Source: Gammaproteobacteria bacterium
GTDB lineage: Bacteria > Pseudomonadota > Gammaproteobacteria > UBA4575
Reading direction: 5' to 3'
Length of the DNA: 64,000 nucleotides
Assembly (NCBI GenBank): GCA_965222615.1
Contig: CBDCUI010000009.1
Location: 384,001-448,000, forward strand
This document shows, piece after piece, positions 16,452 to 51,791 of this stretch. A program made the position numbers and the translations under genes. The notes under the pieces were generated by a model. That model saw only the letters and a program-made list of their open reading frames with translations. It ran no database searches and was not told where the DNA came from. How positions within the stretch are numbered: the first letter of the stretch is position 1; every line of letters begins with the position of its first letter.

Positions 16452-16599
16452 ATTGGAAACTCTGATTTATCCGACTCGTTTTATTTTTTGGGTCGTTAAA
16501 AATGATCTCGGAATGCTCATGTATTGTTATATACACTCCGCTTCTTCGACATTTTTTGCCTCGTCTCAGACATGTCCATTGATAAATCAGTGCCCCAAT
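16452..16599 (+). repeat. Dispersed palindromic element, copy A
   Basis: attggaaactctgatttat...TGCTCATGTA..TACACTCCGC..GCCTCG...ataaatcagtgccccaat. Confidence 0.85.
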
Positions 16600-16608
16600 A
16601 CTTAATGT

Positions 16609-17865
16609 TTAGACTTGTAGCAATAAGCGATTTGGATCTTCTATGGTATTTTTTATATGCCCCAAGAATTGCACTGCTTCTTTGCCATCAATTGTGCGGT
16701 GATCATAGCTCAACGCAAGGTACATCATCGGTGCAATGACTACATCACCATTTTGCGCTATCGGTCGCGCTTGAATAGAGTGCATACCTAATATTGCACT
16801 TTGTGGAGGATTGATTATTGGAGTAGACATCATGGAACCAAAGACACCACCATTGGTGATCGTGAAAGTTCCCCCAGTGAGTTCTTCTATTGTTACTTTG
16901 TTTTCACGTGCGCGCGATACAAAGTCTCCAATTGTTTGTTCGATTCCAGCAAAGGATAGTCTTTCTGCATTTCGAATTACCGGCACGATTAAGCCACGCT
17001 CCGTACTTACTGCTATCCCTATATCAAAATAATCGTGATAGACAATATCTTCGCCTTCTACATATGCATTAATAACTGGAAATTCTTTTAGCGCTTCAAC
17101 CGCGGCTTTAATAAAGAAAGACATAAACCCTAACTTGACGCCATGGGCTTCTGCAAAGCCCTCTTTATATCGTTGTCTTAAATCAACGACATTTTGCATA
17201 TTGACTTCATTAAATGTCGTCAACATTGCACTTTCTTGTTGGGAGCTTACTAGACGTCTAGCAATACTTTTGCGTAAGCTCGTCATTGGTACACGTTTTT
17301 CTTCTCGAGTGCTTTCCGTAGCAAATTCCGGCATGCCCATTATTTCTGTTGAAGCATCGATTTCACTGATTGAACTAGGCTCTGATTCACTTATATAAGC
17401 TTCGATGTCTTGTTTAACAACACGACCCCCTTTACCGGAGCCTTGCACCTGATTGATATCTACATTGTTTTCAGCGGCCAGTTTTCTTACCGCAGGACTG
17501 GTTTTTGAGGTTACAGAGCTCGGCGCAACTTTCGCAGTTTCCATTTGCGCTACCTTAGCCAGCAGCGGCTCTGGACTATCATCTCGACCAGAAACAGATT
17601 CTGATTTAGCAGATTTGCTAGACTGTTTTGCCGTATCGATTACCGCGAGTGTTTCATTACTCTGTACTTGCTCATTTTTTTGTTTTGCGATGGATGCGAG
17701 TTCTCCAGTTTTCGGCGCAGTCACCTCTAAAATTACTTTATCGGTTTCAATATCTACAATTTGCTCACCTTCTTCAACAAACTCACCGGGTGCTTTCAAC
17801 CACTCACCTACCACAGCTTCTGTGATAGATTCTGCTAATTCCGGAACGGTTACCTCTACTTTCAT
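16609..17865 (-). CDS. sucB: 2-oxoglutarate dehydrogenase E2
   Basis: Lipoyl [14 protein letters not shown]3-binding domain, YDHR.IDG. Confidence 0.97.
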
Positions 17866-17898
17866 GAAACTACCTCAAAGATGCCTGTGTATTAATTA

Positions 17899-20760
17899 TT
17901 AAACAGCACGTAGTGGCGGTCGTGAAGCTATTTCACGTAACCCCAATGCATCTTCTATTAAAGACTGCTGCTGTTCACGGTGAATGTGTAAAGATCCAGC
18001 AGCTGGTGATGCAGAGTAATTACGACCCGCATAATGCAGCTGATGATCATCACGCATACAGGCCTTAAGATTACGCCTTGATAGAATATAATTCCAGATA
18101 CCTTGATTACGAGGTTCTTCTTGCGTCCAGATAAGCTCACGTGCATTAGCATATTTATTTAAAATTTGCCTAACTTCATCTAATGGAAACGGATAGAGCT
18201 GCTCAATTCTAACAATTGCCGTTCTGGTAATTTTGTGCTCACGGCGCGCCCGTAATAATTCATAATAAATCTTACCAGCACAGAAAATTATCTTATTGAC
18301 TTCTGCGGGTTTAATCGGATCGACTTCATCAATTACGCAATTGAATCCACCATCAGTAAACTCAGATAGTTCAGATGCGGCATAAGGGTCGCGAAGAATA
18401 TTTTTTGGTGTCATCACAATCAGGGGTTTACGATAGGGACGCAGTATTTGCCTACGCAATAGATGGAATATTTGTGCAGGAGTACTCGGCATACACACTT
18501 GCATATTTTCTTCAGCACATAATTGCAAATAGCGCTCAAGTCTTGCTGATGAGTGTTCTGGGCCTTGGCCATCAAAGCCATGCGGTAATAACATGACCAA
18601 GCCACAGTAACGTTGCCACTTTACTTCAGACGAGCTTAGAAATTGATCGACATACATTTGTGCATTATTTGCAAAATCGCCAAACTGCGCCTCCCAAATT
18701 ACCAGAGTATTTGGCTCGGCAGTGCTGTATCCTACTTCATATCCCAATACTGCTTCTTCAGAAAGCAAAGAGTTAATTGGCAAAAACATAGGTTGTTTTT
18801 CGGAGATATGTTGTAAAGGAATATAGGCGTTACCACTTTCTTGGTCATAAAATGCTGCATGTCGATGGAAGAAAGTACCACGCACACTATCTTGTCCAGA
18901 TAGACGCACATCATAGCCCTCTTCCAATAACGACGCATAGGCAAGCGTTTCGCCAAAACCCCAATCGGCACCAATTTCACCAAGGCCCATCTTTTTACGT
19001 GCTTCAATAATTTTTTCAACGGTACGGTGTAAATTAAACTCTGTTGGTACTGTAGTTATTTTTTCAGTAAGATGTTTAATTCTTTCCGCACTGATACTTG
19101 TTTTTGCTTCCTCTCGCCAATGTGTACCTATAAATGGCTTGTAATCAACGATATGTTCTCTTTCAACATTTTTTGCAATTGGCCCACAAACCTGTTCTCC
19201 GCGTTTCAACTTATTTAAGTACTTGGTCTCTAGTGCTTTTACTCTTGGTGGGGTAATCGTTTTATTTCGAATAAGTCGATTTGCATAAACTTTTCGCACA
19301 CCTTCTTTGTGATGAATGCTCTGATACATTATAGGTTGTGTTACTGAAGGCTCATCAGCTTCATTATGGCCATGCTGCCGGTAGCAAATCATATCGATCA
19401 CTACATCGCGATTGAATTTCATACGAAAATCAACTGCCAATTTTGCTACAAAAACGGCAGCTTCAGGGTCATCACCATTCACATGAAAAATAGGTGCCTG
19501 CACCATTTTGGCAACATCCGTGCAGTACAAAGTAGACCTTGAGTCGAGTGGATCGCTAGTGGTAAAACCAATTTGGTTGTTGACGACAATATGTATGCTG
19601 CCACCTGTGGTGTATCCACGCGTCTTTGAAAGGTTTAAGGTTTCCATCACGACACCTTGCCCGGCAAATGCCGCGTCACCATGAATTAATAAAGGAATTA
19701 CGCCATCACGTTCAGCGTCATTACGACGTTCTTGTCGTGCACGTACAGAACCCTCAACCACAGGGTTAATGGCCTCTAAGTGGGATGGATTAAATGCCAA
19801 TACAGTATGTACTGGTCCATGTGGAGTTTTTAGGTCTGATGAAAAACCTTTGTGATATTTCACATCACCAGAACCGTTAACAGGATCGACAGTATCTTCA
19901 AACTCTTGGAATAGCTCTTCCGGGCTTTTGCCTAATATATTTACTAATACATTTAAACGGCCACGATGCGCCATACCCATAATGACTTCACTGACATGAT
20001 GTTTACCACAACGCAAAATAATTTCATCGATGATTGGAATTAAAGTTAAGCCACCTTCTAGAGAAAAACGTTTTTGCCCAACATATTTTTTATGTAAATA
20101 TACTTCTAACGATTTTGCCGCGATTAAAGTCTCCAAAATCGTGCGCTTACGCTTGTCAGACAAACCAGGGGATAGATAAAACTCCTCAAGTCTGCCTTGT
20201 ATCCACTCCTTTTGCTCTAAAGAGTTTATGTGTTTGTACTCAGTACCGATCGTGCCGCAATAGCTCACAGAAAGCATATTGAGAATTTCGCGTAACGGTG
20301 CTTTTTTGATTCCACCGATAGAACCCGTTTCAAACACAGTATCCATATCATCATGAGTTAAACCATGAAATTCAGGATTAAGCTCTGGGATATCAGGGCG
20401 TGCAGTTGCACTTAAAGGGTCAATATCCGCTTGTCGATGACCAAGGTATCGATAGGCACTGATTAAACGTATGACGCCAACTTGTTTACGGTTGGTTACT
20501 TTAGCATTTGAGGCTTGTATTGAACCTGTTGCACTACTGTGCACGGTTTTATGAATTTCTTGCCGTACTCCAGCATGGCTAAGGCCATTTGCAGGAGAAA
20601 ATTCGTCGGGTTTGAGTTTACTGAACGTCTCTTGCCAATACGCTGAGACAGAATTAGGATCGGCTCGATAAGCCTCAAAAAGAGCTTCTATATAAGCAAC
20701 GCTACTACTATTGAGTTTTTCACCCGTTAAAACTGAAAGCACATCTTTATCCATTTGCAT
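17899..20760 (-). CDS. sucA: 2-oxoglutarate dehydrogenase E1
   Basis: GMAHRGRLN, HGDAAFAGQG, EAQFGDF, GPEHSSAR. Confidence 0.97.
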   Translation of the reverse strand: MQMDKDVLSVLTGEKLNSSSVAYIEALFEAYRADPNSVSAYWQETFSKLKPDEFSPANGLSHAGVRQEIHKTVHSSATGSIQASNAKVTNRKQVGVIRLISAYRYLGHRQADIDPLSATARPDIPELNPEFHGLTHDDMDTVFETGSIGGIKKAPLREILNMLSVSYCGTIGTEYKHINSLEQKEWIQGRLEEFYLSPGLSDKRKRTILETLIAAKSLEVYLHKKYVGQKRFSLEGGLTLIPIIDEIILRCGKHHVSEVIMGMAHRGRLNVLVNILGKSPEELFQEFEDTVDPVNGSGDVKYHKGFSSDLKTPHGPVHTVLAFNPSHLEAINPVVEGSVRARQERRNDAERDGVIPLLIHGDAAFAGQGVVMETLNLSKTRGYTTGGSIHIVVNNQIGFTTSDPLDSRSTLYCTDVAKMVQAPIFHVNGDDPEAAVFVAKLAVDFRMKFNRDVVIDMICYRQHGHNEADEPSVTQPIMYQSIHHKEGVRKVYANRLIRNKTITPPRVKALETKYLNKLKRGEQVCGPIAKNVEREHIVDYKPFIGTHWREEAKTSISAERIKHLTEKITTVPTEFNLHRTVEKIIEARKKMGLGEIGADWGFGETLAYASLLEEGYDVRLSGQDSVRGTFFHRHAAFYDQESGNAYIPLQHISEKQPMFLPINSLLSEEAVLGYEVGYSTAEPNTLVIWEAQFGDFANNAQMYVDQFLSSSEVKWQRYCGLVMLLPHGFDGQGPEHSSARLERYLQLCAEENMQVCMPSTPAQIFHLLRRQILRPYRKPLIVMTPKNILRDPYAASELSEFTDGGFNCVIDEVDPIKPAEVNKIIFCAGKIYYELLRARREHKITRTAIVRIEQLYPFPLDEVRQILNKYANARELIWTQEEPRNQGIWNYILSRRNLKACMRDDHQLHYAGRNYSASPAAGSLHIHREQQQSLIEDALGLREIASRPPLRAV

Positions 20761-20839
20761 TTAAAAAGCTAGAAATTGATATATTTATAGACACTTTATA
20801 TAAAACAATAATTCCAAGCTTTAAGCAATCTTGCGCGTG

Positions 20840-21184
20840 TTACATGGTGTGTGTTGGTCTATCCGCTTGTAATGCACCTGCTAGCAATGTTTCAATCTTA
20901 TTACGTGTTTGGCCATTATCCTGTTTACTAAATTGCACCCCAATCCCTGCAGTTCGATTACCTTGAGCATTAGGTGGGGTAATCCATACAACATTACCTG
21001 CTACTGGAATACGCTCGGTTTCATCCATGAGTGATAGCAACATAAAGACTTCGTCACCAAGCTGATAGGATTTAGTTGTAGGAATGAATAAGCCACCATT
21101 TTTCACGAAGGGAATATAGGCCGCATAAAGCGAGCCTTTGTCCTTAATGGCAAGTGATAATATCCCTCTGCTGCCTTCTGCCAT
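20840..21184 (-). CDS. pilZ: Type IV pilus assembly protein PilZ
   Basis: LYAAYIPFVKNGGLFIPT...PTHTM; follows holB as in Pseudomonas/Xanthomonas. Confidence 0.93.
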   Translation of the reverse strand: MAEGSRGILSLAIKDKGSLYAAYIPFVKNGGLFIPTTKSYQLGDEVFMLLSLMDETERIPVAGNVVWITPPNAQGNRTAGIGVQFSKQDNGQTRNKIETLLAGALQADRPTHTM

Positions 21185-21205
21185 GACTTCAAATTATTAT
21201 GTCAG

Positions 21206-22177
21206 TTAAACGAGGACTTCCTGACAGCCGATAAGCATCTCTTCGATAAATAGGCGCTTATTCAATGGGGCCTTAGAAAGTCGATGTAATTCAATGAGTT
21301 TGTCTAAATACTGAAATAAGGACTGTAAGTCTACTCGACCCACTAAACTATGCAAGGCCCGACGAATGTCGGGGTTTTCGAGAGTCACCGGCCCTTTTTG
21401 GTAGTGACAACGAATCAAGTCCGCACACCATGCTTGCTGCCACAAGACCAGCTGCTCGAGCTCCTCGTTCTGCAGCTTAGCTGATAGTTTGGTCACCTTT
21501 TCTTTATGCAACATAAGCTGCTCAAGCTGATGATAAAATGTTGCGCGGGCTTCTCCTAAACCTGTCTCATGTAGTTCTAAAGCTAACAAAGGTCTGCCTC
21601 CTGAAGCAGATAGCAACGTATCCCAATCCATTTTTTTATTGTGCGATTGTAACCATGTTATAGATTGATCCTCATCTGGGATTTTAAATTTCCATATCTG
21701 GCAACGGCTCCTTATTGTGGCTAATAATCTGTTTGCATGGTGACTAATTAAAAATAATATTGAATCTTCTGGAGGTTCTTCTAAAGTTTTTAGCAAGGCA
21801 TTTGCAGCATTTACATTCATATGATCCGCACAATTTATACAAGCAATTTTATACGTTCCACACTGGCGACTTAACACCATGAAGTTATTGATTTCACGTA
21901 TATCATCGACCTTAATTTGGTCTGTTAATTCATCGACATTAATCATACGAACGTCTGGATGCGTTCTTGCTTGAAATAAATGACAGTTATTACATTTACC
22001 ACATGCATAATTTTTAACACTCGGCTGAGTACAGTTCATTCTCTGTATTAGGGATAGGCAAAATTCAAGCTTGCCTATTGATGATGGCCCAGTAATTAAA
22101 ACGGCATGCGCTAGACGCAAACTATCTAGGTAATTTAATGACCGCTGCCACTGCTGCTCTTGCCAAGGATAAATCAT
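21206..22177 (-). CDS. holB: DNA polymerase III delta' subunit
   Basis: YPWQ, CGKCNNC, HPD, ANALLKTLEEP, TIRSRC. Confidence 0.95.
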   Translation of the reverse strand: MIYPWQEQQWQRSLNYLDSLRLAHAVLITGPSSIGKLEFCLSLIQRMNCTQPSVKNYACGKCNNCHLFQARTHPDVRMINVDELTDQIKVDDIREINNFMVLSRQCGTYKIACINCADHMNVNAANALLKTLEEPPEDSILFLISHHANRLLATIRSRCQIWKFKIPDEDQSITWLQSHNKKMDWDTLLSASGGRPLLALELHETGLGEARATFYHQLEQLMLHKEKVTKLSAKLQNEELEQLVLWQQAWCADLIRCHYQKGPVTLENPDIRRALHSLVGRVDLQSLFQYLDKLIELHRLSKAPLNKRLFIEEMLIGCQEVLV

Positions 22178-22206
22178 GAAGTATCTTTCTACATCATAGT
22201 TAATAG

Positions 22207-22863: not shown

Positions 22864-22883
22864 CTCGAAATACTTTTTAATTA

Positions 22884-23897: not shown

Positions 23898-23938
23898 GAC
23901 AGATATGCACCAAATCCAATTAAGGAAGCTCTGATTTA

Positions 23939-24748: not shown

Positions 24749-24794
24749 ATCAATGCGGATAGCTTTGAAATGATACCAAGCTTGCTAAAACTCG

Positions 24795-24935
24795 AATCTG
24801 ACTCAAAATAGTAGATAATCAGCTAAGACAAGGCACAAAGTTTTCGAAAAGCGGAGTTTACATGCGAGTAAATGAGCATTTGAGAAAACTTTGTAACGCA
24901 GTATTAGATGATTAGATGCATTTTGAGCTTAGATT
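24795..24935 (-). repeat. Dispersed palindromic element, copy B
   Basis: Minus: ctcaaaatGCATCT..CGTT acaaagttttc..TGCTCATTTAC..GTAAACTCCGC..gaaaactttgt GCCTTG..TCTACtattttgag. Confidence 0.88.
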
Positions 24936-26170
24936 TTTTTGAAGACAACCGTGCCATTCGTTCCCCCAAACCCAAACGAATTAGACAAGGCAACATTCAC
25001 CTGTGCGTCACGTGCCTCGTTGGGCACATAATCGAGATCACAGTTGGGATCTGGCGTATCGTAATTGATCGTCGGAGGTAAGACATTATTGTAAAGGGCC
25101 AATACAGTAAACAAAGCCTCTACACCACCTGCCGCACCAAGCAAATGTCCTGTCATGGACTTAGTAGAACTAACGGCTACATCTTTAGCATAATCACCAA
25201 AGGTAAATTTTATGCCTTCTGTTTCGGCAACATCTCCCGCAGGGGTTGAAGTGCCATGAGCATTAATGTAGTTCACTTCGTTAGTATTTAATCCGGCATC
25301 GGCTAAGGCATTAAGCATGCACTTTGCACCACCACGACCTCCTTCGGCAGGCGAAGTCATATGATAGGCATCACTGCTCATACCATATCCCACGAGTTCA
25401 CAATACATCTTTGCCGAGCGTGCCTTAGCCATCTCGTATTCTTCTAACACTAATACACCGGCGCCATCTCCCAGTACAAATCCATCGCGATTTAAATCAA
25501 AGGGCCTGCTAGCCGCTTCCGGATCATCATTATGTGATGCGCTCAAGGCTCTGGCAGCAGAAAACCCACCAATTCCAAGTGGACAAGTTGCCATTTCTGC
25601 TCCACCTGCCAGCATGATATCTGCATCACCATACATAATCATTCTGGCGGCATCGCCAATGTTATGTGTGCCTGTTGTGCAGGCCGATACGATAGAAATA
25701 TTCGGGCCCCGATATCCATACATAATGGATAAATTACCTGACACCATGTTGATGATATTGCTAGGAACAAAAAATGGTGAAATCTTTTTGGGCCCACCTT
25801 TTAAATAAGCTTCGTTACTTTTTTCAATCCCTGGTAAACCGCCGATGCCACTGCCAATCGCCACCCCGATACGATCGGCATTTTCTTCCGTTACTTCAAA
25901 ACCGGAATCATTGATGGCTTGTACACCTGCACCAATGCCAAAATGAATAAAAGGATCCATCTTGCGTTGATCCTTTTTAGACAAATAATCATCGGCATTG
26001 AAATCTCGTGTTTGCCCTGCAATCTGTACAGAAAATTCACTCGCATCAAAACAATCGATTTTAGAGATACCACTATTCCCCGCAGTGATATTCGCCCATG
26101 CTTTATCAAGGCTTGATCCTACGGGGGAGACTATCCCCATACCGGTAACTACAACACGTCGCCGTGACAC
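24929..26170 (-). CDS. fabF: Beta-ketoacyl-ACP synthase II
   Basis: [29 protein letters not shown]. Confidence 0.97.
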
Positions 26171-27449: not shown

Positions 27450-27451
27450 TG

Positions 27452-28745: not shown

Positions 28746-28768
28746 CCCAAGTCAAATATAAAGAACTG

Positions 28769-33985: not shown

Positions 33986-36658
33986 ATGAGTAATAGTTTT
34001 AATACCAAATCCACACTGGATGTGAATGGCAATTCCTATGAAATATTTAATGTGGGGAAATTACCGCAAGCAGAGCGTTTACCCTATTCCATAAAAATTC
34101 TGCTTGAAAATCTTCTGCGCTATGAAGATGGCAGTACCGTTACCAAACAAGACATTGAAGCCATTTTAAATTGGGACTCTAAAGCTGAACCCAGTAAGGA
34201 AATTGCTTTTCGGCCGGCCCGCGTTTTAATGCAAGACTTCACAGGGGTACCTGCAGTTGTAGATTTGGCGGCCATGCGTGACGCCATGAAGGCCTTGGGC
34301 GGTAACCCTGAAAAAATAAATCCGCTACAGCCTGCAGAAATGGTAATCGACCATTCTGTGCAAGTAGATAATTTTGGCTCCGATGCCGCCATGGATTTAA
34401 ATGAAAAGCTCGAGTTTAATCGCAACAAAGAACGTTATAGCTTTTTGAAATGGGGACAAAACGCCTTTTCAAACTTTAAAGTTGTGCCTCCCGGTACCGG
34501 TATCGTGCACCAAGTAAATCTGGAATATTTAGCGCGAGTAATTTTTTCTAAGGAACAAGGCAGCACTACACAAGCCTATCCAGATTCTGTAGTCGGAACC
34601 GATTCACACACCACTATGATTAACGGTGTTGGTGTGCTCGGCTGGGGTGTAGGTGGAATCGAGGCCGAAGCTTCCATGCTGGGCCAACCGATTTCCATGC
34701 TCATTCCCAAAGTGGTTGGATTTAAACTCACCGGTAAACTTCCAGAAGGTGCTACTGCAACGGATTTAGTATTAATGGTAGTAGAAATGCTGCGTAAACA
34801 CGGTGTGGTAGGTAAGTTTGTAGAATTTTATGGGGATGGCTTAGATGTATTACCACTTGCAGACCGCGCTACCATTGCCAACATGGCGCCAGAATACGGC
34901 GCAACCTGTGGAATCTTTCCGATAGATGCCGAAACTATTCGCTATCTAAGTCAAACCGGACGCGATGCACAACAAGTTGCGTTAGCCGAAGCCTATGCAA
35001 AAGAAACCAGTATGTGGCGTGAAGGCCAATCTATGAACGAGGGAGAAGATGTCGATTTCAGTGAGCACATTGAATTAAATCTGGGTGATGTCGTACCAAG
35101 CTTGGCAGGACCGAAACGCCCACAAGATCGTATTTCACTTACCGAATCCAAAACGGTGTTTGCCAAAGACATCGCTGCTCTTAAAGAAGAACGTGATATT
35201 CAAAGCAAAGGTAGTGTAAACATTTCTATTGATAACCAAGAGGTAACCTTAGCGGATGGCGCAGTAGTACTCGCGGCAATTACTTCTTGCACTAACACTT
35301 CCAACCCAAGTGTCATGCTCGGTGCCGGCTTAGTCGCGCGCAAAGCGGCAAAGCTTGGAGTGAAAGTAAAACCTTGGGTGAAAACTTCACTGGCACCCGG
35401 TTCACGTGTAGTAACTGAATACTTAGAAAGTGCCGGTGTCATGGATGATTTAAAAGAACTTGGTTTTCATGTAGTAGGTTATGGATGTACAACTTGTATT
35501 GGAAACTCAGGCCCATTACCGGAACCCGTGGCTAATGCCATTACCGAAAATGATCTAGTCACTACTTCAGTACTATCCGGCAATCGTAACTTCGAAGGCC
35601 GTGTACATGCCCTGATTCGCATGAACTATCTAGCTTCACCACCACTAGTCGTGGCCTATGCCATTGCCGGGCGCATGGATATCGACGTCTACCATGAAGC
35701 CATTGCCGAAGACAAAGATGGGAATCCAGTATTCTTAAGAGATATCTGGCCGACCCAACAAGAAGTTACTGATGTCGTGACAAACTTTTTAACTACAGAC
35801 CAATATGTGCGTTCGTATGATGATGTCTTTAGCGGAGAAAGCAATTGGAATAATTTAGCTGCTGCAGATAGCGATTTATATGCCTGGGATGACTCCACGT
35901 ATATCAATAATCCACCTTATTTCGAAGGCATGACCAAAACGGTTGAAGATGTAACCGATATTCATGGTGCACGCGTACTGGCGTATCTCGGTGATTCTGT
36001 TACTACCGATCACATCTCACCCGCAGGTGCAATCGCATCAGATAGCCCTGCAGCAAAATATTTACAAGAAAAAGGCGTAAGCCCTGCAGACTTTAACTCT
36101 TACGGTTCGCGTCGTGGTAACCATGAAGTAATGATGCGTGGCACTTTTGCCAACATTCGTCTACGTAACAAATTGGCACCAGGAACCGAAGGTGGCGTCA
36201 CCATTCACCAACCCAGTGGTGAACAAATGTCTATCTATGATGCAGCAATGAAATATAAGCAAGAAAGTGTTCCCACCATTATTCTTGCCGGCAAAGAGTA
36301 TGGTTGTGGCTCATCACGTGATTGGGCTGCAAAAGGGCCACGTTTACAAGGCGTCAGTGCTGTAATTGCAAAAAGTTACGAACGTATCCATCGTTCGAAT
36401 TTAGTAGGCATGGGCATATTACCCTTACAGTATAAAGACGGTGACAATGCCGAAAGCCTTGGCTTAAGTGGTAAAGAAACATTTAGCATCACAGGTTTAC
36501 AAAATGGTGCTGCCAAGATGGTTACGGTTACTGCAACTAGTGAAGACGGCTCTGAAAAAACATTTGAAGTGAAAGTGCGTATCGATACACCACAAGAAGT
36601 GGAGTATTACCAGAATGGGGGCATACTTCATTATGTACTTCGCCAACTAGCCGCTTAA
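33986..36658 (+). CDS. acnA: Aconitate hydratase A
   Basis: [39 protein letters not shown]. Confidence 0.97.
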
Positions 36659-36781
36659 ATCGCATCTTTTGATCCAATATTTCGTTGCGATACTTTTTGC
36701 TGATGCTCATTTACAACTGTGTAAACTGCGCTTCTCAAAAGTATCGCGCCTCATCTTGAATCAAAATCTACTGATTTAAGT
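36653..36781 (+). repeat. Dispersed palindromic element, copy C
   Basis: cttaaatcGCATCT..CGTT gcgatacttttt..TGCTCATTTAC..GTAAACTGCGC..aaaagtatcgc GCCTC..TCTACtgatttaag. Confidence 0.88.
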
Positions 36782-40287: not shown

Positions 40288-40308
40288 GTTCTACTCAGGA
40301 AATTATTT

Positions 40309-40434
40309 TAAAGAGGCACTGATTTATTCTGAAACGAGGCAAAAAATGACGAAAAGCGCGGAGTGTATGAATAATACATGAGCACTTTAAGATCATTTTT
40401 TAACAAAGTATCAGGATAAATCTGGGTTTCTTTA
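40309..40434 (-). repeat. Dispersed palindromic element, copy D
   Basis: Minus: taaagaaacccagatttat..TGCTCATGTA..TACACTCCGC..GCCTCG..ataaatcagtgcctcttta; same subfamily as copy A. Confidence 0.88.
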
Positions 40435-41823
40435 GGCTTCTTGAATGCCGCCTTTAGTTAATGCAGCAGGGTCCAATAGCTTTTTAATTTGATCTTCACT
40501 CAAATCGGTCATTTCTTTTGCTACATCTAAAATAGGTCTACCCGATGCATAGGCCGCCTTGGCAATGGCAGCACCTTTTTCATAACCAATAGCGCGATTC
40601 ATGGCGGTAACCAGAATTGGGTTCCGACCCAATGCGTTTTCTAAATTTTCTTGATTTACAGTAAAACCTTCAATGGCTTTGTCTGCCAGCACATTGGCAG
40701 AGTTTGTTAATAGCTCGACACTTTGTAATAAGTTATAGGCAATCACTGGTAGCATGACGTTTAACTGAAAATTACCCGCCTGCCCTGCAACAGTTACGGT
40801 TGTATCATTACCAATAACTTGCGCACATACCATAGCTACGGCTTCGGGTATTACAGGATTGACTTTGCCCGGCATGATACTACTACCAGGTTGTAATGAC
40901 GGCAGTGCGATTTCACCTAAACCTGCAAGTGGCCCGGAGTTCATCCAACGTAAATCATTGGCAATCTTGGTCAAACTCACCGCAAGTGTTTTAAGTTGTC
41001 CACTCATTTCGACGGCTGCGTCTTGACAACTCAAGCCTTCAAACTTATTTGCTTTACTTGAGAAAGAAAAGTTACTAAGTGATGAGAGTTGTTTTGCAAC
41101 CAATTCACCAAATTTAGCATCTGCATTAATGCCACTACCAACAGCGGTACCACCTTGTGCTAATTGGCGTAAACGACCTAATGAATCGTCAATGCGTTCT
41201 AAGGAATATTGAATTTGCTGTGACCATGCACTTAATTCTTGTCCCATAGTAACTGGCATGGCATCCATTAGATGCGTGCGGCCTGTTTTTACATATTGTT
41301 CACATTCATTTGATTTTTTATTCAATACTTCAATAAGATGTTTTAGAGTAGGTTTTAGCTTTTCTTCTATTTGCAAACAGCCACTAACATGTATTGCAGT
41401 CGGGATGACATCATTTGAGCTTTGGCTCATGTTGACATGGTCATTTGGATGCACATCCACTTCACTTGCAGAACTTGCCAAGTGTGCGATCACTTCATTG
41501 GCATTCATATTGGTGCTAGTACCGGAACCAGTTTGGAAAACATCGATTGGAAAATGTTGATCGTAATCACCGTTAGCTACTGTAAGTGCAGCTTTTTTAA
41601 TTACGGCTTCAACATCTTTCGTCATTAAACCCAGCTCTACATTTGCACCGGCACATGCTGCCTTGATTAGACCTAAAGCGCGTATAAACTGCCGTGGCAT
41701 GGTAAGATTACTAATTGGAAAATTCTCGACAGCACGTTGCGTTTGTGCTCCATACAATGCATCGGCAGGCACTTTAAGCTCACCCATGCTGTCTTTTTCA
41801 ATCCGATAATTTGAATCGCTCAT
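40432..41823 (-). CDS. fumC: Class II fumarate hydratase
   Basis: YGAQTQRA, QTGSGT, GSSIMPGKVNP. Confidence 0.96.
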   Translation of the reverse strand: MSDSNYRIEKDSMGELKVPADALYGAQTQRAVENFPISNLTMPRQFIRALGLIKAACAGANVELGLMTKDVEAVIKKAALTVANGDYDQHFPIDVFQTGSGTSTNMNANEVIAHLASSASEVDVHPNDHVNMSQSSNDVIPTAIHVSGCLQIEEKLKPTLKHLIEVLNKKSNECEQYVKTGRTHLMDAMPVTMGQELSAWSQQIQYSLERIDDSLGRLRQLAQGGTAVGSGINADAKFGELVAKQLSSLSNFSFSSKANKFEGLSCQDAAVEMSGQLKTLAVSLTKIANDLRWMNSGPLAGLGEIALPSLQPGSSIMPGKVNPVIPEAVAMVCAQVIGNDTTVTVAGQAGNFQLNVMLPVIAYNLLQSVELLTNSANVLADKAIEGFTVNQENLENALGRNPILVTAMNRAIGYEKGAAIAKAAYASGRPILDVAKEMTDLSEDQIKKLLDPAALTKGGIQEA

Positions 41824-43328: not shown

Positions 43329-43334
43329 CGAACA

Positions 43335-44384: not shown

Positions 44385-46267
44385 AATCCTAATGCGCGCT
44401 TTCTTCTCCGACTACGAACGATTGATAGAACCAAGGCCAATATTGAAATTATGATTGGTACTAAACCGATATTAATAAATTTAAGCTTAGTTCCAAGTTT
44501 TTCTATATCGAGATTCAGATTATGCCTAACTTGCCTTAGTTGTTTACGAACATTAAGTTTCTCTTGCTGAAACTTTTGTATTTCTGCCTCTTGTTCTGGA
44601 GATAACATTAAGGCATTACTATCTTCGCGTTGCTTTTGTAGCTCTACTAATTTTTGTTCGGTTTCGCTAAGTTTTGCCTGTAAGGATTCTTCTGTTGCAC
44701 GAAACTTTTGGTCTGCGTCTAAACGCAATTCATTGACTCGTTCAAATGGACGCGTAGAAGTCTCGCGTCCGCGTATGCTGATTAAGTCAGAGTTGCCTGT
44801 GAAATTATCGACTGTGTTAATGACAAGATCACCATTGTTCGCCCAAGCATTAATTAATTGCTGGCCCAAAAATTCCTGTACTTGCACCCACATGCGATCA
44901 CTTAAAATATCGGTGTCAGCCACGATAAATAAATTGGCATCTTCTTGGCTAGACGCTAAATGCTCTGAAGTTGGTTGATCTTCTTCATCCGTGGTTGCTG
45001 GTCTACCATTCGGAAATGCAGTATTAAGCTTTCCTTGTACACGCCCGATGAAAGTATATTTTTCACCGCTTGGATTAAAATTAGTCGTCAATTGGCTTAA
45101 ATCAGGTAAAAACCGAAAGCGCACTGCTTCCACCAATGCAGCATCATCGCTTGAACTTACAATAGGTGTTAATTTTACGTTTGCATTTTCTTTGACTTTT
45201 ATGTGGCCACCGACACCTACACTAATCACTTCTAATTCAGACGAAATAACGTCTTCGTTATCCAGATTCTCTTTAGTTATTGCTAACAAACCATAATGTC
45301 GGTTTTGGCCCTGATGCGCTCCGCCGACTGTAAGGGCATATTTGCGGTCTAATACAACCGAGGTAGGGTCGTACTCAATTCTCCAAGCATTAAATAATTC
45401 TTTTAAATCTGAACTACGACCACCTTCAACTTCCAATGGTGAGTTTTGCTGGCGAACCGGAGTATCAATTTCAGAATGTGGATCGACAAAGAACAATGCC
45501 TTGCCGCCACGCATTACGAATTGGTCTATCGCATAAATAGTGGGCTGAGAAAGTTCTTTAGGATGCACCACCATTAAAATATCTACGTCTTCTTCAATTT
45601 CCTTAGTGGTCACATCTAGTTGTTTTAGCTCAAACAACTGACGCATTTGCGCAATAATGGCCCATGCCTTGGTCATTTGTGTGGTCTGAATATCAAAACC
45701 ACCAAACATGGGCAGTTGAGTGATAATCCCCACTACTGTTTTTTTAGTATTAGTAAGGTTATATATTAGTTTTGAGACATCATATTCCAAAAACTGTTCT
45801 CGCTGTGGTTGGAAGAAAACAATTTTTTCTGTATCTCCGACAGCATTACTTGCGGCCAAACCAAAATATATATTCTCACCGGTAGCACCAAGAGGCACAC
45901 CTTGTAAACCGTATGCTGAAGCTTGATCCTCTTCTTCTGAGTATGGCAACGGATCAACAACATTTAGCACAATATTACCATTCGATAATTGCGCATACTC
46001 CTGTAAAAGTTCCTTGACTCGTTCTGCATAAGTACGCAACTTCGGTATATCTTCACTAGCCTTATCAGAATAAAATAAATACAACGTAATAGGTTCCTCA
46101 ATGCTTTTAACGATATTACGAGTGCCTTCAGTAAGGGTATAAAGCCCATTATCGGTTAAATCTACACGCATTGAGGTGAATAATTTGCTACTCGCCATAT
46201 TGATGACTAGAAACAGCACGGCAAGCACAACTAAACCAACTAGAGTAATTGAGGTAGATTTTTGCAT
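44381..46267 (-). CDS. GldG-family (GIFT/ABC-auxiliary) protein
   Basis: RVDLT...YTL..GT, AIDQFVMRGG, ADTD.L, N.DL..N.VD. Confidence 0.88.
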   Translation of the reverse strand: MQKSTSITLVGLVVLAVLFLVINMASSKLFTSMRVDLTDNGLYTLTEGTRNIVKSIEEPITLYLFYSDKASEDIPKLRTYAERVKELLQEYAQLSNGNIVLNVVDPLPYSEEEDQASAYGLQGVPLGATGENIYFGLAASNAVGDTEKIVFFQPQREQFLEYDVSKLIYNLTNTKKTVVGIITQLPMFGGFDIQTTQMTKAWAIIAQMRQLFELKQLDVTTKEIEEDVDILMVVHPKELSQPTIYAIDQFVMRGGKALFFVDPHSEIDTPVRQQNSPLEVEGGRSSDLKELFNAWRIEYDPTSVVLDRKYALTVGGAHQGQNRHYGLLAITKENLDNEDVISSELEVISVGVGGHIKVKENANVKLTPIVSSSDDAALVEAVRFRFLPDLSQLTTNFNPSGEKYTFIGRVQGKLNTAFPNGRPATTDEEDQPTSEHLASSQEDANLFIVADTDILSDRMWVQVQEFLGQQLINAWANNGDLVINTVDNFTGNSDLISIRGRETSTRPFERVNELRLDADQKFRATEESLQAKLSETEQKLVELQKQREDSNALMLSPEQEAEIQKFQQEKLNVRKQLRQVRHNLNLDIEKLGTKLKFINIGLVPIIISILALVLSIVRSRRRKRALGL

Positions 46268-46272
46268 AACTG

Positions 46273-47007
46273 TTAATCCGCCTTCTTCATTTCCACCACT
46301 AAGGCATTTGCGTATAACCAAAAACCAATGAGTGTTACAAAATAAATAATGTCGCGCAGGTCGATTACACCTTTTGCGATTGAAGTGTAATGCGTTAAGA
46401 AACTTAGAGAAGATATCGCATCAACAATATTTTGTGGAATCCAGACCTTGAAAAAATTCAACACCAAGGGCGAACCGGCTAACAAGAAAATAAAACAAAT
46501 CACTACCGTAATAATAAATGCGATCACTTGGTTTTTAGTCATGGCCGAGATGCAAGCCCCAATCGCTAAGAAACCACCTGCCATTAAAAAACTACCGAGA
46601 TAGGCAGCGAAAATAACTCCATTATCGGGTTTGCCTAAATAATTCACGGTTATCCAAATTGGAAAAGTCAACAATAACGCGATACCAATAAATACCCAGG
46701 CCGCTAAATATTTACCAATTACTGACTGGGTCACAGATACAGGTAAAGTCATCAATAACTCTATGCTGCCCGACTTGCGTTCTTCAGCCCATAAACGCAT
46801 TGCAATGGCAGGCACCAAAAATAGATATAACCATGGATGAAAATCAAAGAACGGAATTAAATCGGCCTGCCCTCTTTCATAAAGATTGCCAAGATAGAAA
46901 GTTAATGCGCCACTCATAATTAAAAAAATCACAATAAATACATAAGCAACAGGTGTTGCGAAATAACTGCTTAATTCACGCTTAAAAATTGTAATAACGT
47001 TTTTCAT
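46273..47007 (-). CDS. GldF-like ABC-2 permease
   Basis: RELSSYFATP.AY, MRLWAEERKSG.IELL.TLP. Confidence 0.9.
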   Translation of the reverse strand: MKNVITIFKRELSSYFATPVAYVFIVIFLIMSGALTFYLGNLYERGQADLIPFFDFHPWLYLFLVPAIAMRLWAEERKSGSIELLMTLPVSVTQSVIGKYLAAWVFIGIALLLTFPIWITVNYLGKPDNGVIFAAYLGSFLMAGGFLAIGACISAMTKNQVIAFIITVVICFIFLLAGSPLVLNFFKVWIPQNIVDAISSLSFLTHYTSIAKGVIDLRDIIYFVTLIGFWLYANALVVEMKKAD

Positions 47008-47726
47008 GACAACTTTTCTTGAGTAATTTCTCGAAAAATTTCTTCTAATTTATTACTAGACGAGTTTTCTCTTAAACCATTGGGTGTATCGTCAGCGAGT
47101 ATTTTTCCATCAGCGATGATAATGGCGCGAGTACATATTGCATCAACCTCTGAAAGTATATGCGTTGAGATAACAATAACTTTTTCCGGAGCAATGCTCT
47201 TAATTAATTCTCTTACTTCATGTTTTTGGTTTGGGTCCAAACCATCAGTGGGCTCGTCTAATATCAATACTTCTGGGTCATGTAAAATCGCTTGTGCCAA
47301 GCCTACCCTTCTTTTGAAACCTTTTGATAGGGTCTCGATAGATTGGTTGAGGACTTTATCCAAATGTAAACGTTCGATTACTTCTTTTTTGCGATCTGTT
47401 TTTTTCTGTCCTGTAAGTCCACGCACCTCGGCAATAAATTCCAGGTACTGCAACGGCGTCATTTCACCATAGCTTGGTGCGCCTTCTGGTAGGTAACCAA
47501 TGCGCTTTTTAACGTCAATGGGCTTGTCATTTACATTGAAGCCACACACTTCGATGTCCCCGGAGCTAGGCGTGAGAAATCCAGTGATCATCTTCATGGT
47601 TGTGGACTTGCCGGCACCGTTTGGACCTAAAAACCCAAGCACTTCTCCAGGGTTGACGGAGAAGGATATATCTTCGACAGCGACTAAGTGCCCGAATTTT
47701 TTACTTAAGTGATCAATTTTTATCAT
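47004..47726 (-). CDS. GldA-like ABC ATPase
   Basis: GPNGAGKST, LSKG.KRRVGLAQA, LDEPT. Confidence 0.92.
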   Translation of the reverse strand: MIKIDHLSKKFGHLVAVEDISFSVNPGEVLGFLGPNGAGKSTTMKMITGFLTPSSGDIEVCGFNVNDKPIDVKKRIGYLPEGAPSYGEMTPLQYLEFIAEVRGLTGQKKTDRKKEVIERLHLDKVLNQSIETLSKGFKRRVGLAQAILHDPEVLILDEPTDGLDPNQKHEVRELIKSIAPEKVIVISTHILSEVDAICTRAIIIADGKILADDTPNGLRENSSSNKLEEIFREITQEKLS

Positions 47727-47995
47727 GTCTTACACTGCTTTCAGTGTAGAGGAGGTATTCCACCTCGTTGTCGGCGGCGAAATGGTACTAAACTTTTAGT
47801 AATTTTCAAGCACCTAAAGCGGCCACACTATACGCGATTATCTGCTAAAAACCGAACTTGAGTCCTTCAGCAGCTGCTTATTGGGCTGTATTCAAGCAAT
47901 TTAGTTCCTGGTCGCGATTTTTAATAAATGAGAACCTAAATCCAGTAGTCTATAATCCAAACCGACATGACTACCCAACCCTTAGGACTGCATTA

Positions 47996-48523
47996 GTGGG
48001 GATTTCAACCGACAATTTTTTTAAAAATTTTATTCTTGGTGTCACCAATGAATGTATCAAAGTAGACAGTCGCTCGCATAATCGTGATGCGGTTACTAAA
48101 TTATTACACTCTGCACGTGATGATGTCGTTATTGTCAGTCGTTACTTAGACCCTACCATTTACAATAACGAAGAAATTTCAAGTGCTGCCTTGCAGCATG
48201 TAAAACATTCTAAACATAACAGTATAAGAATACTTGTGCATGATACGGCCCCCATGGTTAAAAATGGCCATCGTTTGCTCGACTTGAGTCAACGCGTTTC
48301 ATCAAAAATAGAAGTCCGCACTATCTGTGATGACTACTCACAATTTAATCAAAGTTTCTTAGTGGCCGATACTATTGGCTATATACATAACCTTAAGTCC
48401 GATCTTTATGAAGCAGAAGTAAACTTTAATGATAAAGACAGGTCAAAGGAACTGATGGAAAACTTTAAAGAAATATGGGAATCCAGTACCCAAGACACAG
48501 CCATACGAAGATTATGCATCTAA
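47996..48523 (+). CDS. Conserved hypothetical (DUF7931-like, stand-alone GNAT-associated domain)
   Basis: LDP.IY, IRILVHD..GHRL..L.QR..SKIE.R; start moved to GTG after AGGA. Confidence 0.7.
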   Translation: MGISTDNFFKNFILGVTNECIKVDSRSHNRDAVTKLLHSARDDVVIVSRYLDPTIYNNEEISSAALQHVKHSKHNSIRILVHDTAPMVKNGHRLLDLSQRVSSKIEVRTICDDYSQFNQSFLVADTIGYIHNLKSDLYEAEVNFNDKDRSKELMENFKEIWESSTQDTAIRRLCI

Positions 48524-49365
48524 AACATACACGTTACATTATTGTTTTTTTGATTTGCTTAGTGATACCTATCACTGTAAGTGCAGATCAAAATGATCCG
48601 CTTGAAATCATTCAGTTAAAAAATCGGCCTGCCGAAGAAATGATCCCAATCATTAAGCCTATGCTGAAACCAAATGACGCCATCACGGGGTCTGGTTTTC
48701 AACTGTTTTTGCGTACCGATGCAAAAACTTTAGCAGAAATCACTCGACTTCTAAATGTAATGGACAAAGCACCACGAAATTTAATTATTTCGGTGCGAAA
48801 CAATGTTGATATAGGCTCTGAATTAACTGATTTTAATGTTTCTGGTAACTATGAAATTGGTGGCGATACTCGCGTTATCGTGGGTAACAGGCCACCACGG
48901 GAAGAAGGAACACGTGTACGAATAAACAAAAATGAACGTGAGCAAGAAAATGATGCTGAGCATATGGTGCGTGTGATTGAAGGTGGTAAGGCATTTATCA
49001 CCGCCGGCGAAATTCGACCCTACGAACACCGGACTATCATCCGTCATCGTCATGGTGTTTCTGTCTACGATAACGTGGATTATCAAGACATCACTAGCGG
49101 TTTCTATGTCACACCACGTTTAACTGGCAGCGGCGAGGTCTCTTTACATATACAACCACATTATCGCAGCGTTAGTGATGAACATCGTGGCACTATAGAT
49201 GTACAAGAAGCCGATACGATGGTCACGGCTAAATTAGGTCAATGGGTTCAAATTGGTGGTGTAGACACTGAAGCCAAATCAAAAGACAAAGGCATTTTAA
49301 GCACCTCGCGTTCTGAATCAGACAGAACTAGTGCCATCTATGTCAAAGTTGATGTAGAAAAATAA
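48514..49365 (+). CDS. Secretin N-domain (NolW-like) short secretin-like protein
   Basis: Signal peptide; I.L..RPAEE.IP..KP.L; GFYVTPRL; LGQWV.IGG. Confidence 0.8.
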   Translation: MHLKHTRYIIVFLICLVIPITVSADQNDPLEIIQLKNRPAEEMIPIIKPMLKPNDAITGSGFQLFLRTDAKTLAEITRLLNVMDKAPRNLIISVRNNVDIGSELTDFNVSGNYEIGGDTRVIVGNRPPREEGTRVRINKNEREQENDAEHMVRVIEGGKAFITAGEIRPYEHRTIIRHRHGVSVYDNVDYQDITSGFYVTPRLTGSGEVSLHIQPHYRSVSDEHRGTIDVQEADTMVTAKLGQWVQIGGVDTEAKSKDKGILSTSRSESDRTSAIYVKVDVEK

Positions 49366-49424
49366 TTATATTTAGACCTTGCTAATCGCTTTCGTTTATA
49401 AGTCGAATATTTAACCTAGAGAAT

Positions 49425-49454
49425 AAAAAAAGCCCGATATTACATCGGGCTTTT
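49425..49454. terminator. Bidirectional intrinsic terminator
   Basis: aaaaaaagcccgat-attac-atcgggctttt between convergent genes. Confidence 0.85.
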
Positions 49455-49489
49455 AAAAATTACCTTAGACCAGGTGTTTTACAAATTTG

Positions 49490-49720
49490 TTAATTAGGAT
49501 TACCCGGATGATTAGGATTACCTGTCAAGCTATTTTCTGCATTATTATTTGGTAATGAATTTCCAGGTGCGCATTGATCACCGTTACCAAAACCATTATT
49601 ACATGACCTTCCCATTGCTTGAACATCAGCACCCTTTAAAATTAACAGTGCAGGCGGTGTGTACACAGCAAACTTCCCTGTAGTCTTTAAAAACTTACGC
49701 CTCGATTCGCTCTTTTTCAT
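49490..49720 (-). CDS. Small Tat-motif/YxxPxL-leader, Asn/Gly-rich peptide; candidate RiPP precursor or secreted peptide
   Basis: GGAGG RBS, own terminator, SRRKFLK, YTPPAL, core CNNGFGNGDQC. Confidence 0.75.
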   Translation of the reverse strand: MKKSESRRKFLKTTGKFAVYTPPALLILKGADVQAMGRSCNNGFGNGDQCAPGNSLPNNNAENSLTGNPNHPGNPN

Positions 49721-50295
49721 AATTGTCCTCCAAATTTATTAACCCAACTCCCTTACTAATCCTACTCTAAAAAAAACGGAATATACTACATATAGACTAA
49801 ATTTCATAGCATAAACAATAGTAGGTTTCAACAATCTTTTAAGTTATTCATAAAATGTGGCTGTAACGTACTAAATTTATGATGATTTAATGATACAGTT
49901 GATAGAACGGTCGTCAGCAACTCTCAATAAAAATAAGTTAGAAAGCCTACTTATAAGAAGTATTTCCTAGCATCTTACTTAATGTAGTTTGTTCTATCTT
50001 TTAATACTTATAAGGAAAAAGCTATCAATATGAGCACAAGTCCTGTGATACTTAATTGAATACCCAAAATTCGTAACTGTTGAATTGTCATTATTATTAT
50101 CCTAGTTATGTAGTGATTGGTTTTAGGTAGTAATTATTGACATAGCAGGCATAATTTCTGCTAACGGGTTCACATTTAAAAAAACTTAAATAATTTTAAT
50201 TAGTTATTTGATCAAGAATTGATCAATATACTTCACCCAAGGCTTAGAATTAATACTAAGTTCTTGTTTCCACACGTAGTTTACTGTCAGCCAAT

Positions 50296-50892
50296 TTACT
50301 TATTAGCCCATTTCTTCACTAATTCATCTTTTAGGTCTTTAAATCCATAAAGTGCGATCATTGGAATTGCTGAGCGAATGATTCCATCTTGAAGCATTTC
50401 TATGGCTAGTTGAGATGAAACTACTTTGACCCGAATATCTTCACCTTCATGATCTTCACCGTGCACACCACCTAAATCGGTTGTATCCGTCTTGCCAATA
50501 TAGACATGTGCCAATTCCGCAAAACCGCCAGGGGATGGAAAAAATGAGGATACATAGTGTAGTTCTTCTATTTCACAATTAGCTTCTTCAATGGATTCTC
50601 GATAAGCAACTTCTTCTAGGCTTTCGCCTTCTTCGACTAAACCTGCCACCACTTCAACCAGCCATGGACTACCAGTTTGATCCAGCGGCCCTACTCGAAA
50701 TTGTTCGATTAATACGACTTCGTCGCGCCTTGGGTCATATGGCAAAACGGCAACTGCGTTTTGTCGAGATACCCGTTCACGTACTAGATCTTCACTGTAG
50801 CCTCCAGCAAACAGCTCATGCTGCACGATTAATTGATCGACTTTAAAGTGCCCATCATATTTACGTGTCCGTTGTTTTATTTTCCAATCCAT
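50296..50892 (-). CDS. nudF: ADP-ribose pyrophosphatase
   Basis: VLPYDP..DEVVLIEQFR, Nudix box, SPGG, EGEDI. Confidence 0.92.
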   Translation of the reverse strand: MDWKIKQRTRKYDGHFKVDQLIVQHELFAGGYSEDLVRERVSRQNAVAVLPYDPRRDEVVLIEQFRVGPLDQTGSPWLVEVVAGLVEEGESLEEVAYRESIEEANCEIEELHYVSSFFPSPGGFAELAHVYIGKTDTTDLGGVHGEDHEGEDIRVKVVSSQLAIEMLQDGIIRSAIPMIALYGFKDLKDELVKKWANK

Positions 50893-50906
50893 TTTTGTGT
50901 CACAGT

Positions 50907-51632
50907 TTATAAAGTATTTAGTAAGGCTTCATAATCTTCTTGGGTATCCACACCTATTCCAGTTGGTGATTTGCATACATCTACATAAATAGCATTTCCG
51001 TTTTCTAGGGCACGCATTTGTTCTAATGATTCTTTTTTTTCTAGCTTAGATTGCGGCAGCTGAGTAAACAGATTTAAAAACTCGACGCTATAGCCATAAA
51101 CACCTAAATGACGATAAATTTCATTGCGCTTATAAAACTCTTCGCCGAATGATTTTACATCTCTGCTGAAACTAATCGCATGATTATTGCTATCACGGAT
51201 TACTTTAACGACATTAGTATTTTCATATTCATCTTCATGAACCGGTGCACATAGCGTAGACATCGATACATTTTTATGTGCAATTAAGTTTTCTGCAACT
51301 TGTTTTATATTTTCAGCAGGCATCATGGGTTCATCACCCTGCACATTTACAATTACAACATCATTAGGCCATGAATGCTTTTGTGCGACTTCGGCAATTC
51401 GATCTGTGCCAGATTGATGTTTATCTGAAGTTAAACAAACCTCTGCATTAAACCCTTGTGCACATTCCAAAATTCGTTGGTCATCAGTGGCAATTATGAC
51501 TTGAACAGCGCCACTGTTTACGGAGTTTTCATAAACATATTGAATAATGGGTTTGCCATTGACTTGTAACAATGCTTTACCAGGCAAGCGCACGGAGGCA
51601 TAGCGGGTGGGGATGACTACCTTAAATTTCAC
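50907..51632 (-). CDS. kdsB: CMP-Kdo synthetase
   Basis: IP.RYAS.RLPGK, SGTDR, NVQGDEP, LEQ.RAL. Confidence 0.95.
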   Translation of the reverse strand: MKFKVVIPTRYASVRLPGKALLQVNGKPIIQYVYENSVNSGAVQVIIATDDQRILECAQGFNAEVCLTSDKHQSGTDRIAEVAQKHSWPNDVVIVNVQGDEPMMPAENIKQVAENLIAHKNVSMSTLCAPVHEDEYENTNVVKVIRDSNNHAISFSRDVKSFGEEFYKRNEIYRHLGVYGYSVEFLNLFTQLPQSKLEKKESLEQMRALENGNAIYVDVCKSPTGIGVDTQEDYEALLNTL

Positions 51633-51633
51633 A

Positions 51634-51791
51634 AGAACCTATCTCAAAATGCATCTAGCACGCTGATACGGCGTTGCAAAGCTGTCTTCGGTGCTCATTT
51701 ACCCTCTTAGATTTCACAAGGGTAAACTCCGCTCCTCAGAAAACTTTGCGCCTTGTCTGAGCGTTCTATCTACTACTTTGAAATAGGTTCT
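51634..51791 (+). repeat. Dispersed palindromic element, copy E
   Basis: agaacctatctcaaaatGCATCT..CGTT gcaaag..TGCTCATTTAC..GTAAACTCCGC..ctttgc GCCTTG..TCTACtactttgaaataggttct. Confidence 0.88.

Follow-up and report, generated by a model that had tools for sequence, protein, structure and literature searches.

Rod-like hairpins in a gammaproteobacterial chromosome: a probable IS5-type MITE family with a covarying core fold

A 64,000-nucleotide (nt) stretch of chromosome from a Gammaproteobacteria bacterium of the UBA4575 lineage (GenBank assembly GCA_965222615.1, contig CBDCUI010000009.1, positions 384,001–448,000; hereafter the window) carries five hairpins, A to E, that share a fold and a few unpaired motifs, with stems that differ from copy to copy. 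What kind of element keeps its fold and not the sequence of its stems? We conclude that the five hairpins are probably copies of a non-autonomous, non-coding miniature inverted-repeat transposable element (MITE) of the type associated with the insertion sequence (IS) family IS5, and that its conserved fold is selected on one strand. MITEs of this kind are known; this IS5-type MITE is set apart by a core that covaries, is unusually well conserved and is under selection on a single strand. Sequence words from the core and terminal repeats, used as literature queries, gave only unrelated primer matches, and a keyword search, which returned mostly listings and abstract openings, yielded no published description.

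The window has a G+C content of 40.2%. An integron (intI and cassette array) fills its first 14 kb, followed by the housekeeping operons lpd-sucBA, holB-tmk-mltG-pabC-fabF-acpP-fabGD, clpAS, mnmA-hflD-acnA, fumC, purB, kdsB-lpxK-msbA and lolCD.

A family held together by its fold

All five copies lie between genes, with B and D reverse-complemented relative to A, C and E. A preliminary description made from the sequence had located the same five copies, whose extents are here refined to 120–158 nt. The core pattern TGCTCATKTA..TAMACTSCGC matched five times in the window and never in 100 dinucleotide shuffles; an nhmmer profile built from the five copies recovered all of them (E-values 2e-25 to 3e-37) and gave no sixth match in the window below E = 5. 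The internal-loop motifs of that description, TGCTCAT/ACT(C/G)CGC and CGTT/GCCT, are present in the alignments, GCATCT/TCTAC is present in B, C and E, and the stem pairs it quoted were all found, as was the swap that divides the copies into two subfamilies, CATTTA/TAAAC (B, C, E) versus CATGTA/TACAC (A, D). The element has no coding capacity: short ATG-led frames differ among copies, and that of copy B stops at codon 4. A small open reading frame (ORF) preceded by a Shine-Dalgarno sequence, as GGAG..ATG might be read, was rejected; some copies, including copy C, have GCAG, and the frames are not conserved.

When folded, every copy takes the form of a single long rod, in which the unpaired motifs are conserved and the stems are divergent yet paired. 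On the better-folding strand, RNA folding z-scores for the five copies ranged from -4.2 to -9.3. Both-sided changes were seen at 25 of the 44 predicted pairs, and 89.3% of cells were paired, as against 74.1 ± 2.0% in shuffles (0/500 reached the observed value) and 33–43% when the partners were slid. Copies A and D, and likewise B and E, are close pairs, so that independent changes within the window are few, a worry that a larger set removes. We scanned species-representative genomes with a pattern consisting of the core plus GCCT at 15–18 nt and obtained at least 121 loci, a lower bound biased by the search pattern, in Pseudomonadota, Bacteroidota, two Bacillota isolates and others; the window's own genome is not among them, and long flanks were available for 80 of the 121. 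In an alignment of 122 copies made with MAFFT, blind to structure, 89.3% of cells were again paired (70.5 ± 0.5% in shuffles, 0/500; 32–44% with partners slid), and both-sided changes occurred in 624 cells, compared with 200 ± 11 in shuffles. In the two variable helices, each of the four Watson-Crick pair types is frequent. The compensatory change on which the preliminary description had built its case for a fold-conserved dispersed family appears in both tests.

The centre of the rod, ~75 nt, reads CAAGGC, stem, GCGSAGU, a 6-bp apical stem, AUGAGCA, the second half of the stem and AACGC. It is kept in several phyla: the stems covary freely and the asymmetric internal loops stay fixed. Among positions that the search pattern did not impose, the C before AAGGC (CAAGGC) and the AAC past the stem are conserved in at least 90% of the 122 copies. 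Nine additional copies, found by profile and not by pattern, deviate slightly, and one of them has C-G in place of the apical G.U pair. Apical loops range from 4 to ~20 nt; copy E has a longer one, of ~20 nt. Within this one genome the stems diverge widely (AAAGTTTTC, GATACTTTT, AAAAATGA), so the stems are not a sequence-specific binding site. The segment TGCTCATTTAC, which is reminiscent of rrn boxA and of dif arms, covaries as a stem, and that likeness was set aside. By eye, A/T tracts recur about every 11 nt in the consensus core (AAAAA, AAAAA, TTTAC, GTAAAT, TTTT, TTTTT); with this spacing, the double-stranded form could be intrinsically curved.

The two strands of the rod are not equivalent. 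We refer to the strand reading GCGSAGT..ATGAGCA, which folds better, as R; in all five window copies it folds 5–19 kcal/mol better than its complement. Isolated transition mismatches inside helices, counted in the arms outside the imposed core with G.T and A.C scored alike, comprised 133 G.T and 58 A.C on the R strand (binomial p 6e-8). By copy, G.T exceeded A.C in 59, the reverse held in 15 and the two were equal in 50; the window copies alone gave 10 G.T and 1 A.C. Mutational bias is an unlikely source of this excess because the copies lie in both chromosomal orientations. The asymmetry points to selection on the fold of the R strand, as RNA or as single-stranded DNA, and fits the earlier idea that one single strand matters.

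Ends, target duplications and known hairpin families

In the relatives, the base of the rod consists of 15–18-nt terminal inverted repeats, for example CAGGCCGTTGAAAAAC/GTTTTTCAACGGCCTG. Two classes of relatives (classes 1 and 2) have the ends GGAAS..CTGA.. and CAGGCYGTTGAAAA. The 11 relatives in which class-1 or class-2 termini can be recognised on either side all measure 139–140 nt; exact 4-nt direct repeats (TTAA, TTAG, CTAG, CTAA, ATAG) flank nine of them, and the repeats of the remaining two differ by one base. A Pseudomonas class with the ends GAGCCTGTTCACGAT shows exact 3-nt repeats in 3 of 10 copies, and TNA fits 7 of 10 flanks on each side. We take these duplication lengths (4-nt YTAR, 3-nt TNA) to be those of IS5 subgroups in the ISfinder classification. 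In the window, copy D is flanked by TTAA (40308–40311) and TTAG (40432–40435), a YTAR duplication with one mismatch. Filled and empty sites, for which the preliminary description had suggested looking, were found as one pair, the only one recovered: Pseudomonas sp. GW6 (locus L078) carries the element, and P. paralcaligenes (L047) lacks ~177 bp at the orthologous site. Terminal repeats, fixed 4-nt YTAR/TTAA duplications and a filled/empty site are marks of DDE-transposase insertion of the IS5-family type. The family combines the general features of a MITE (small size, no coding, terminal repeats, a fixed-length duplication in the relatives, dispersed copies) with those of IS5/MITEPsy1-like MITEs, that is, GGAAGG../GAG..-type ends together with a 4-nt YTAR (or 3-nt TNA) duplication. 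Its ends GGAAGCTCTGAAAAAGG and GGAAGCGCTGAATAAT resemble those of MITEPsy1 (GGAAGGTCTGAAAAAGCC) and of E. coli IS5 (GGAAGGTGCGAAYAAG).

MITEPsy1 of Pseudomonas syringae pv. phaseolicola, as described by Bardaji et al. (2011; PMC3189936), generates a 4-nt duplication, CTAG or YTAA, and was trapped while transposing into a sacB trap. Its authors attribute it tentatively to the IS5 family (ISPsy2) and describe its close copies as narrowly distributed (PMC3189936). It is alike in being small and non-coding, in the type of its terminal repeats (GGAAGGTCTGAAAAAGCC versus GGAAGCTCTGAAAAAGG) and in its 4-nt duplication, and differs in length, 100 nt versus 120–158 nt here. We rejected identity with MITEPsy1 on its interior, which is unrelated: the sequence on plasmid NC_007274 (16481–16580) has none of the core motifs and no full-length rod, and homology of the interior to MITEPsy1 or ISPsy2 was accordingly not found. 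The preliminary description had named, as one of two results that would refute it, complete identity with a MITE already described and assigned to a transposase. No such match emerged; MITEPsy1 shares only the end type.

Hairpin elements of comparable size occur in many bacteria. Correia/NEMIS, ERIC/IRU, RUP and bcr1 are 100–200-nt imperfect palindromes that are intergenic, often at gene 3' ends, present in many copies and predicted to be transcribed as long hairpins; our element is likened to them by description, not by sequence. To our knowledge, a core conserved across phyla with covariation has not been reported for these classical families. None of 20,395 E. coli records matched a full copy by BLAST, so that the element is not ERIC, REP, RSA or boxC. 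REP sequences and REPINs are likewise dispersed intergenic hairpins with complementary halves, and a single-strand form is their probable substrate. REPINs insert without duplicating the target and depend on one RAYT gene per genome, which has copies on its flanks. The present element shares with them dispersed intergenic hairpins whose halves stay complementary; unlike them and the IS200/IS605 palindromes, it has target duplications, and no HUH gene recurs within 4 kb of its copies. With integron attC sites it shares a fold with recognised unpaired bases, one favoured strand and stems free to vary. Unlike attC, it has no R''/R' cores (RYYYAAC/GTTRRRY) and shows GCGTT..GCCT instead, it lies outside cassette arrays, 2–38 kb beyond intI among housekeeping genes, and it has target duplications and terminal repeats and occurs in both orientations. 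It is therefore no canonical attC, in keeping with the preliminary description, which had noted the lack of AAC/GTT cores, and it stands apart from the window's own integron array. QMITE2 of Coxiella, also reported from beyond its genus, is another 100–200-nt imperfect palindrome, intergenic (often at gene 3' ends) and multicopy, with transcripts predicted as long hairpins; it is described with direct repeats of 7–11 nt and variable sequence, as against 4-nt YTAR here, and the two are set apart by description only (PMC5896051).

Comparison with Rfam, which had also been proposed beforehand together with a scan of relatives, returned no family. At gathering thresholds Rfam 15 had no match in the window, and on eight loci it matched just rRNA, tRNA and SRP (signal recognition particle) RNA elsewhere in locus L039, with nothing on the element; copy E searched at E ≤ 10 gave only chance-level matches to eukaryotic microRNA or long non-coding RNA models.

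Weighing the readings of the fold

In the model that we favour, a DDE transposase whose gene lies at another place in the genome, a putative mobiliser suggested by these sequence hallmarks, would recognise the 15–18-bp terminal inverted repeats and insert the element at YTAR/TTAA (TNA in one class), duplicating the target. As YTAR contains TAA and TAG, such a target would account for the many copies that abut or supply stop codons. The short element might snap back through its fold, bringing its two ends together, and the fold might expose the unpaired motifs for recognition by the transposase or by a host factor. We put forward tentatively that the fold acts in cis for the propagation of the element itself and not for the neighbouring genes. 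A fold needed by the element would account for its constancy across hosts and positions, for the strand asymmetry, and for a mild avoidance of the strongest hairpin in operon transcripts. Copies are intergenic whatever the arrangement of the neighbouring genes: by crude ORF calls, 139 distinct profile hits comprised 41 between co-directional genes, 18 convergent, 13 divergent, 9 inside a called ORF, 54 at a locus edge and 4 far from genes.

Several observations weigh against this model. Copies A, B, C and E of the window show no target duplication, and only that of D is near-intact. Neither the window nor 1.27 Mb of loci yielded an autonomous IS with matching ends, a tblastn search of both with E. 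coli InsH gave no match, and no transposase family recurs beside the copies. The copies share kinship, so the shuffle statistics overstate independence, and the search pattern behind all the loci itself requires the core, which makes invariance of the core motifs in that set a matter of construction. The same type of ends occurs with a different interior in MITEPsy1. Nothing known of DDE transposases, which work on double-stranded ends, would explain why the fold should be strand-specific, and we know of no precedent for such a role of a fold in a DDE element. The orientation to flanking genes is mixed, with the R strand antisense in 27 and sense in 14 of 41 co-directional cases as judged by crude ORF calls (binomial p ~0.06); this argues against a simple RNA role without proving a DNA role.

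A broader version, which we regard as somewhat doubtful, would make the 75-nt core a pan-bacterial structured module mounted on IS5-type ends and read as a folded single strand through its repeated RAGGC/AACGC internal loops and its apical GCGSAGU/AUGAGCA loop. Such a module could mean either that the fold is required by a DDE transposase or by some conserved protein of the host, in which case no earlier structure-dependent step would have been described for transposons of this class, or that the hairpins form an abundant unannotated RNA class with a function of its own.

An RNA that serves the host, be it a stabiliser of mRNA 3' ends, an RNase processing site or a terminator-like insulator, spread by mobile DNA and kept locus by locus, is unlikely in our estimate. 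Covariation and G.U-type asymmetry are typical of RNA, and such roles are described for other bacterial MITEs in the review literature (PMC10969869). The copies also fit tightly between genes, with a median distance of ~14 nt to the nearest ORF end, and convergent settings are relatively frequent among them (18 of 72 classified). In Bacillus sp. SCS-153A (L039 9959–10097) a copy occupies an rRNA operon spacer between a tRNA (9704–9776) and the 23S rRNA (from 10100), with its R strand in the sense of the rRNA. Against this stands the expectation that a host-serving RNA should be sense-oriented, which holds for just 14 of the 41 co-directional cases and largely sets our estimate. Positions are moreover not conserved between genera (near acnA, the element lies on different sides in three loci), the element is present or absent at an orthologous site, and Rfam holds no matching family. 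An intrinsic terminator was rejected as well: the U-tract after the stem is missing in window copies B, C and E and in Bacteroidota copies.

Quite improbable is a single-strand mobile element recognised by structure alone, in which an HUH transposase (IS200/IS605, RAYT) or a tyrosine recombinase would read the folded strand and its unpaired bases as for attC, REP/REPIN or CTX-phage attP. Its attractions are the covarying fold with fixed asymmetric loops, the clear wobble-pair asymmetry, the location of the most conserved non-imposed positions in the centre and not at the tips, and an integron integrase gene in the same window. HUH peel-and-paste and integron recombination, however, do not make fixed 4-nt YTAR duplications with terminal repeats; there is no RYYYAAC/GTTRRRY pair, and the real attC sites of the window look different and sit in the cassette array (1–13000); and the apical loop varies from 4 to ~20 nt, which a recombination core site would not tolerate. 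The preliminary description had proposed a mobile or regulatory element based on single-stranded DNA or RNA structure and served by an unnamed enzyme: its emphasis on one strand stands, and its purely structure-based part gives way before the terminal repeats, the 4-nt YTAR/TTAA duplications and the filled/empty site. The nuclease, HUH or recombinase gene flanked by copies for which it had advised looking was not seen; none recurs within 4 kb of them. A cis-associated gene was likewise rejected after clustering of 645 neighbouring ORFs, which yielded nothing beyond common families of paralogues (sensor kinases, LysR, GGDEF-EAL, response regulators, SDR, aconitase), and of other sites with matching ends but without the core, none was convincing.

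That the fold is under no selection at all, its arms being complementary as transposon ends evolving in concert or through mismatch repair in extruded hairpins and its loops being mere left/right differences, is very improbable: MITE arms do begin as inverted repeats, one transposase must fit both ends and kinship inflates the shuffle tests, but the stems of a single genome diverge as widely as AAAGTTTTC, GATACTTTT and AAAAATGA, the asymmetric loops that repair would erase are identical across phyla, and neither double-strand co-evolution nor symmetric repair predicts the excess of G.T over A.C on one strand.

Bacterial MITEs are usually seen as decaying IS leftovers in which nothing but the tips counts. 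In this family the tips vary among lineages; the centre keeps its fold through hundreds of compensatory changes, favours one strand and has identical unpaired bases in Pseudomonadota, Bacteroidota and Bacillota. Should mobilisation require the fold, a single-stranded or snapped-back intermediate would be indispensable to short DNA transposons; should the fold work as RNA, then RNA catalogues lack an intergenic element that is common in many bacteria of the environment and the gut.

Copies in the window and distribution of the family

The element inserts at targets containing TAA or TAG, and within an operon it can contribute a stop codon as well as a hairpin between genes, as between sucB and lpd, fabF and pabC, and lpxK and kdsB in the window; annotation pipelines should therefore recognise it. 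The fabF stop codon (24929–24931, minus strand) falls inside the end of copy B, the acnA stop codon TAA (36656–36658) within the first bases of copy C, and the fumC stop codon (40432–40434, minus strand) in the right-hand repeat flanking copy D. Insertions thus define or preserve the C-termini of housekeeping genes.

Table 1. Element copies and other features of the window. Strands of copies are those of R; folding values are free energies in kcal/mol with z-scores in brackets.
Feature	Coordinates	Strand	Length (nt)	Core	R strand	Complement	Location or remarks
Copy A	16452–16599	-	148	16514–16541	-38.6 (-4.2)	-33.5 (-2.8)	Neighbours lpd (start codon 16448–16450) and sucB (stop at 16609); subfamily with G-C apical pair
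Copy B	24794–24936	+	143	24851–24878	-50.2 (-8.5)	-37.5 (-5.8)	Between pabC and fabF
Copy C	36654–36780	-	127	36704–36731	-45.1 (-7.3)	-34.3 (-6.7)	Directly behind acnA
Copy D	40312–40431	+	120	40358–40384	-40.8 (-7.6)	-29.7 (-5.9)	Between a GGDEF-EAL gene and fumC
Copy E	51634–51791	-	158	51692–51732	-70.8 (-9.3)	-51.9 (-5.4)	Between kdsB and lpxK; folding run on 51634–51801, 10 nt beyond one end
Integron array	~300–13200	-					Small ORFs with attC-like repeats between them, ending GTTAGG or GTTAT
Integron repeats	10142–10210, 11463–11531		69				Two repeats, 99% alike, with a near-perfect palindrome
Integrase gene	13309–14292	+					TIGR02249 match at 1.7e-147
ORF	58278–58814						Weak match to the type IV secretion effector BspA family (NF047382; E 5e-9, 36 bits versus cut-off 300)

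Grouped by record title, the loci among the matches listed fall to Pseudomonadaceae (42), other Gammaproteobacteria (30), Bacteroidota (22), Halomonadaceae (8), Betaproteobacteria (7), unclassified Pseudomonadota (3), Alphaproteobacteria (2) and Bacillota isolates (2: Bacillus sp. SCS-153A and Terrihalobacillus insolitus), with one each in Oligoflexales, Balneolales, Spirochaetaceae, a metagenome-assembled genome labelled Ructibacterium and a record without a taxon name. The Bacteroidota, Spirochaetaceae and some further assignments are those of metagenome bins, two of which, one labelled 'Pedobacter' and the one labelled 'Ructibacterium', have copies resembling the Pseudomonas and Alistipes types and may be mis-binned. 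Among plasmids, BLAST with a Pseudomonas copy matched 15 records (13 Pseudomonas, one Halomonas, one Ca. Fukatsuia), in none of which the element is annotated, and BLAST with window copy B matched two; phages gave no match to a full copy.

Some copies have themselves been rearranged or interrupted. A Bacteroidaceae bin (L027 9959–10212) holds two direct tandem copies, 116 nt from start to start. Small inserts break the copies in L011, L014, L021, L033 and L111. An apparent 7.7-kb transposon between two half copies in L020 was rejected, both copies being complete, each with a nested insert of ~60 nt. These inserts (L020 10047–10107 and 17660–17720), GC-rich and REP-like, lie right after ATGAGCA and recur in L037, L044 and L053, all of the Pseudomonas group; another small repeat seems to use the internal loop of the element as a landing site.

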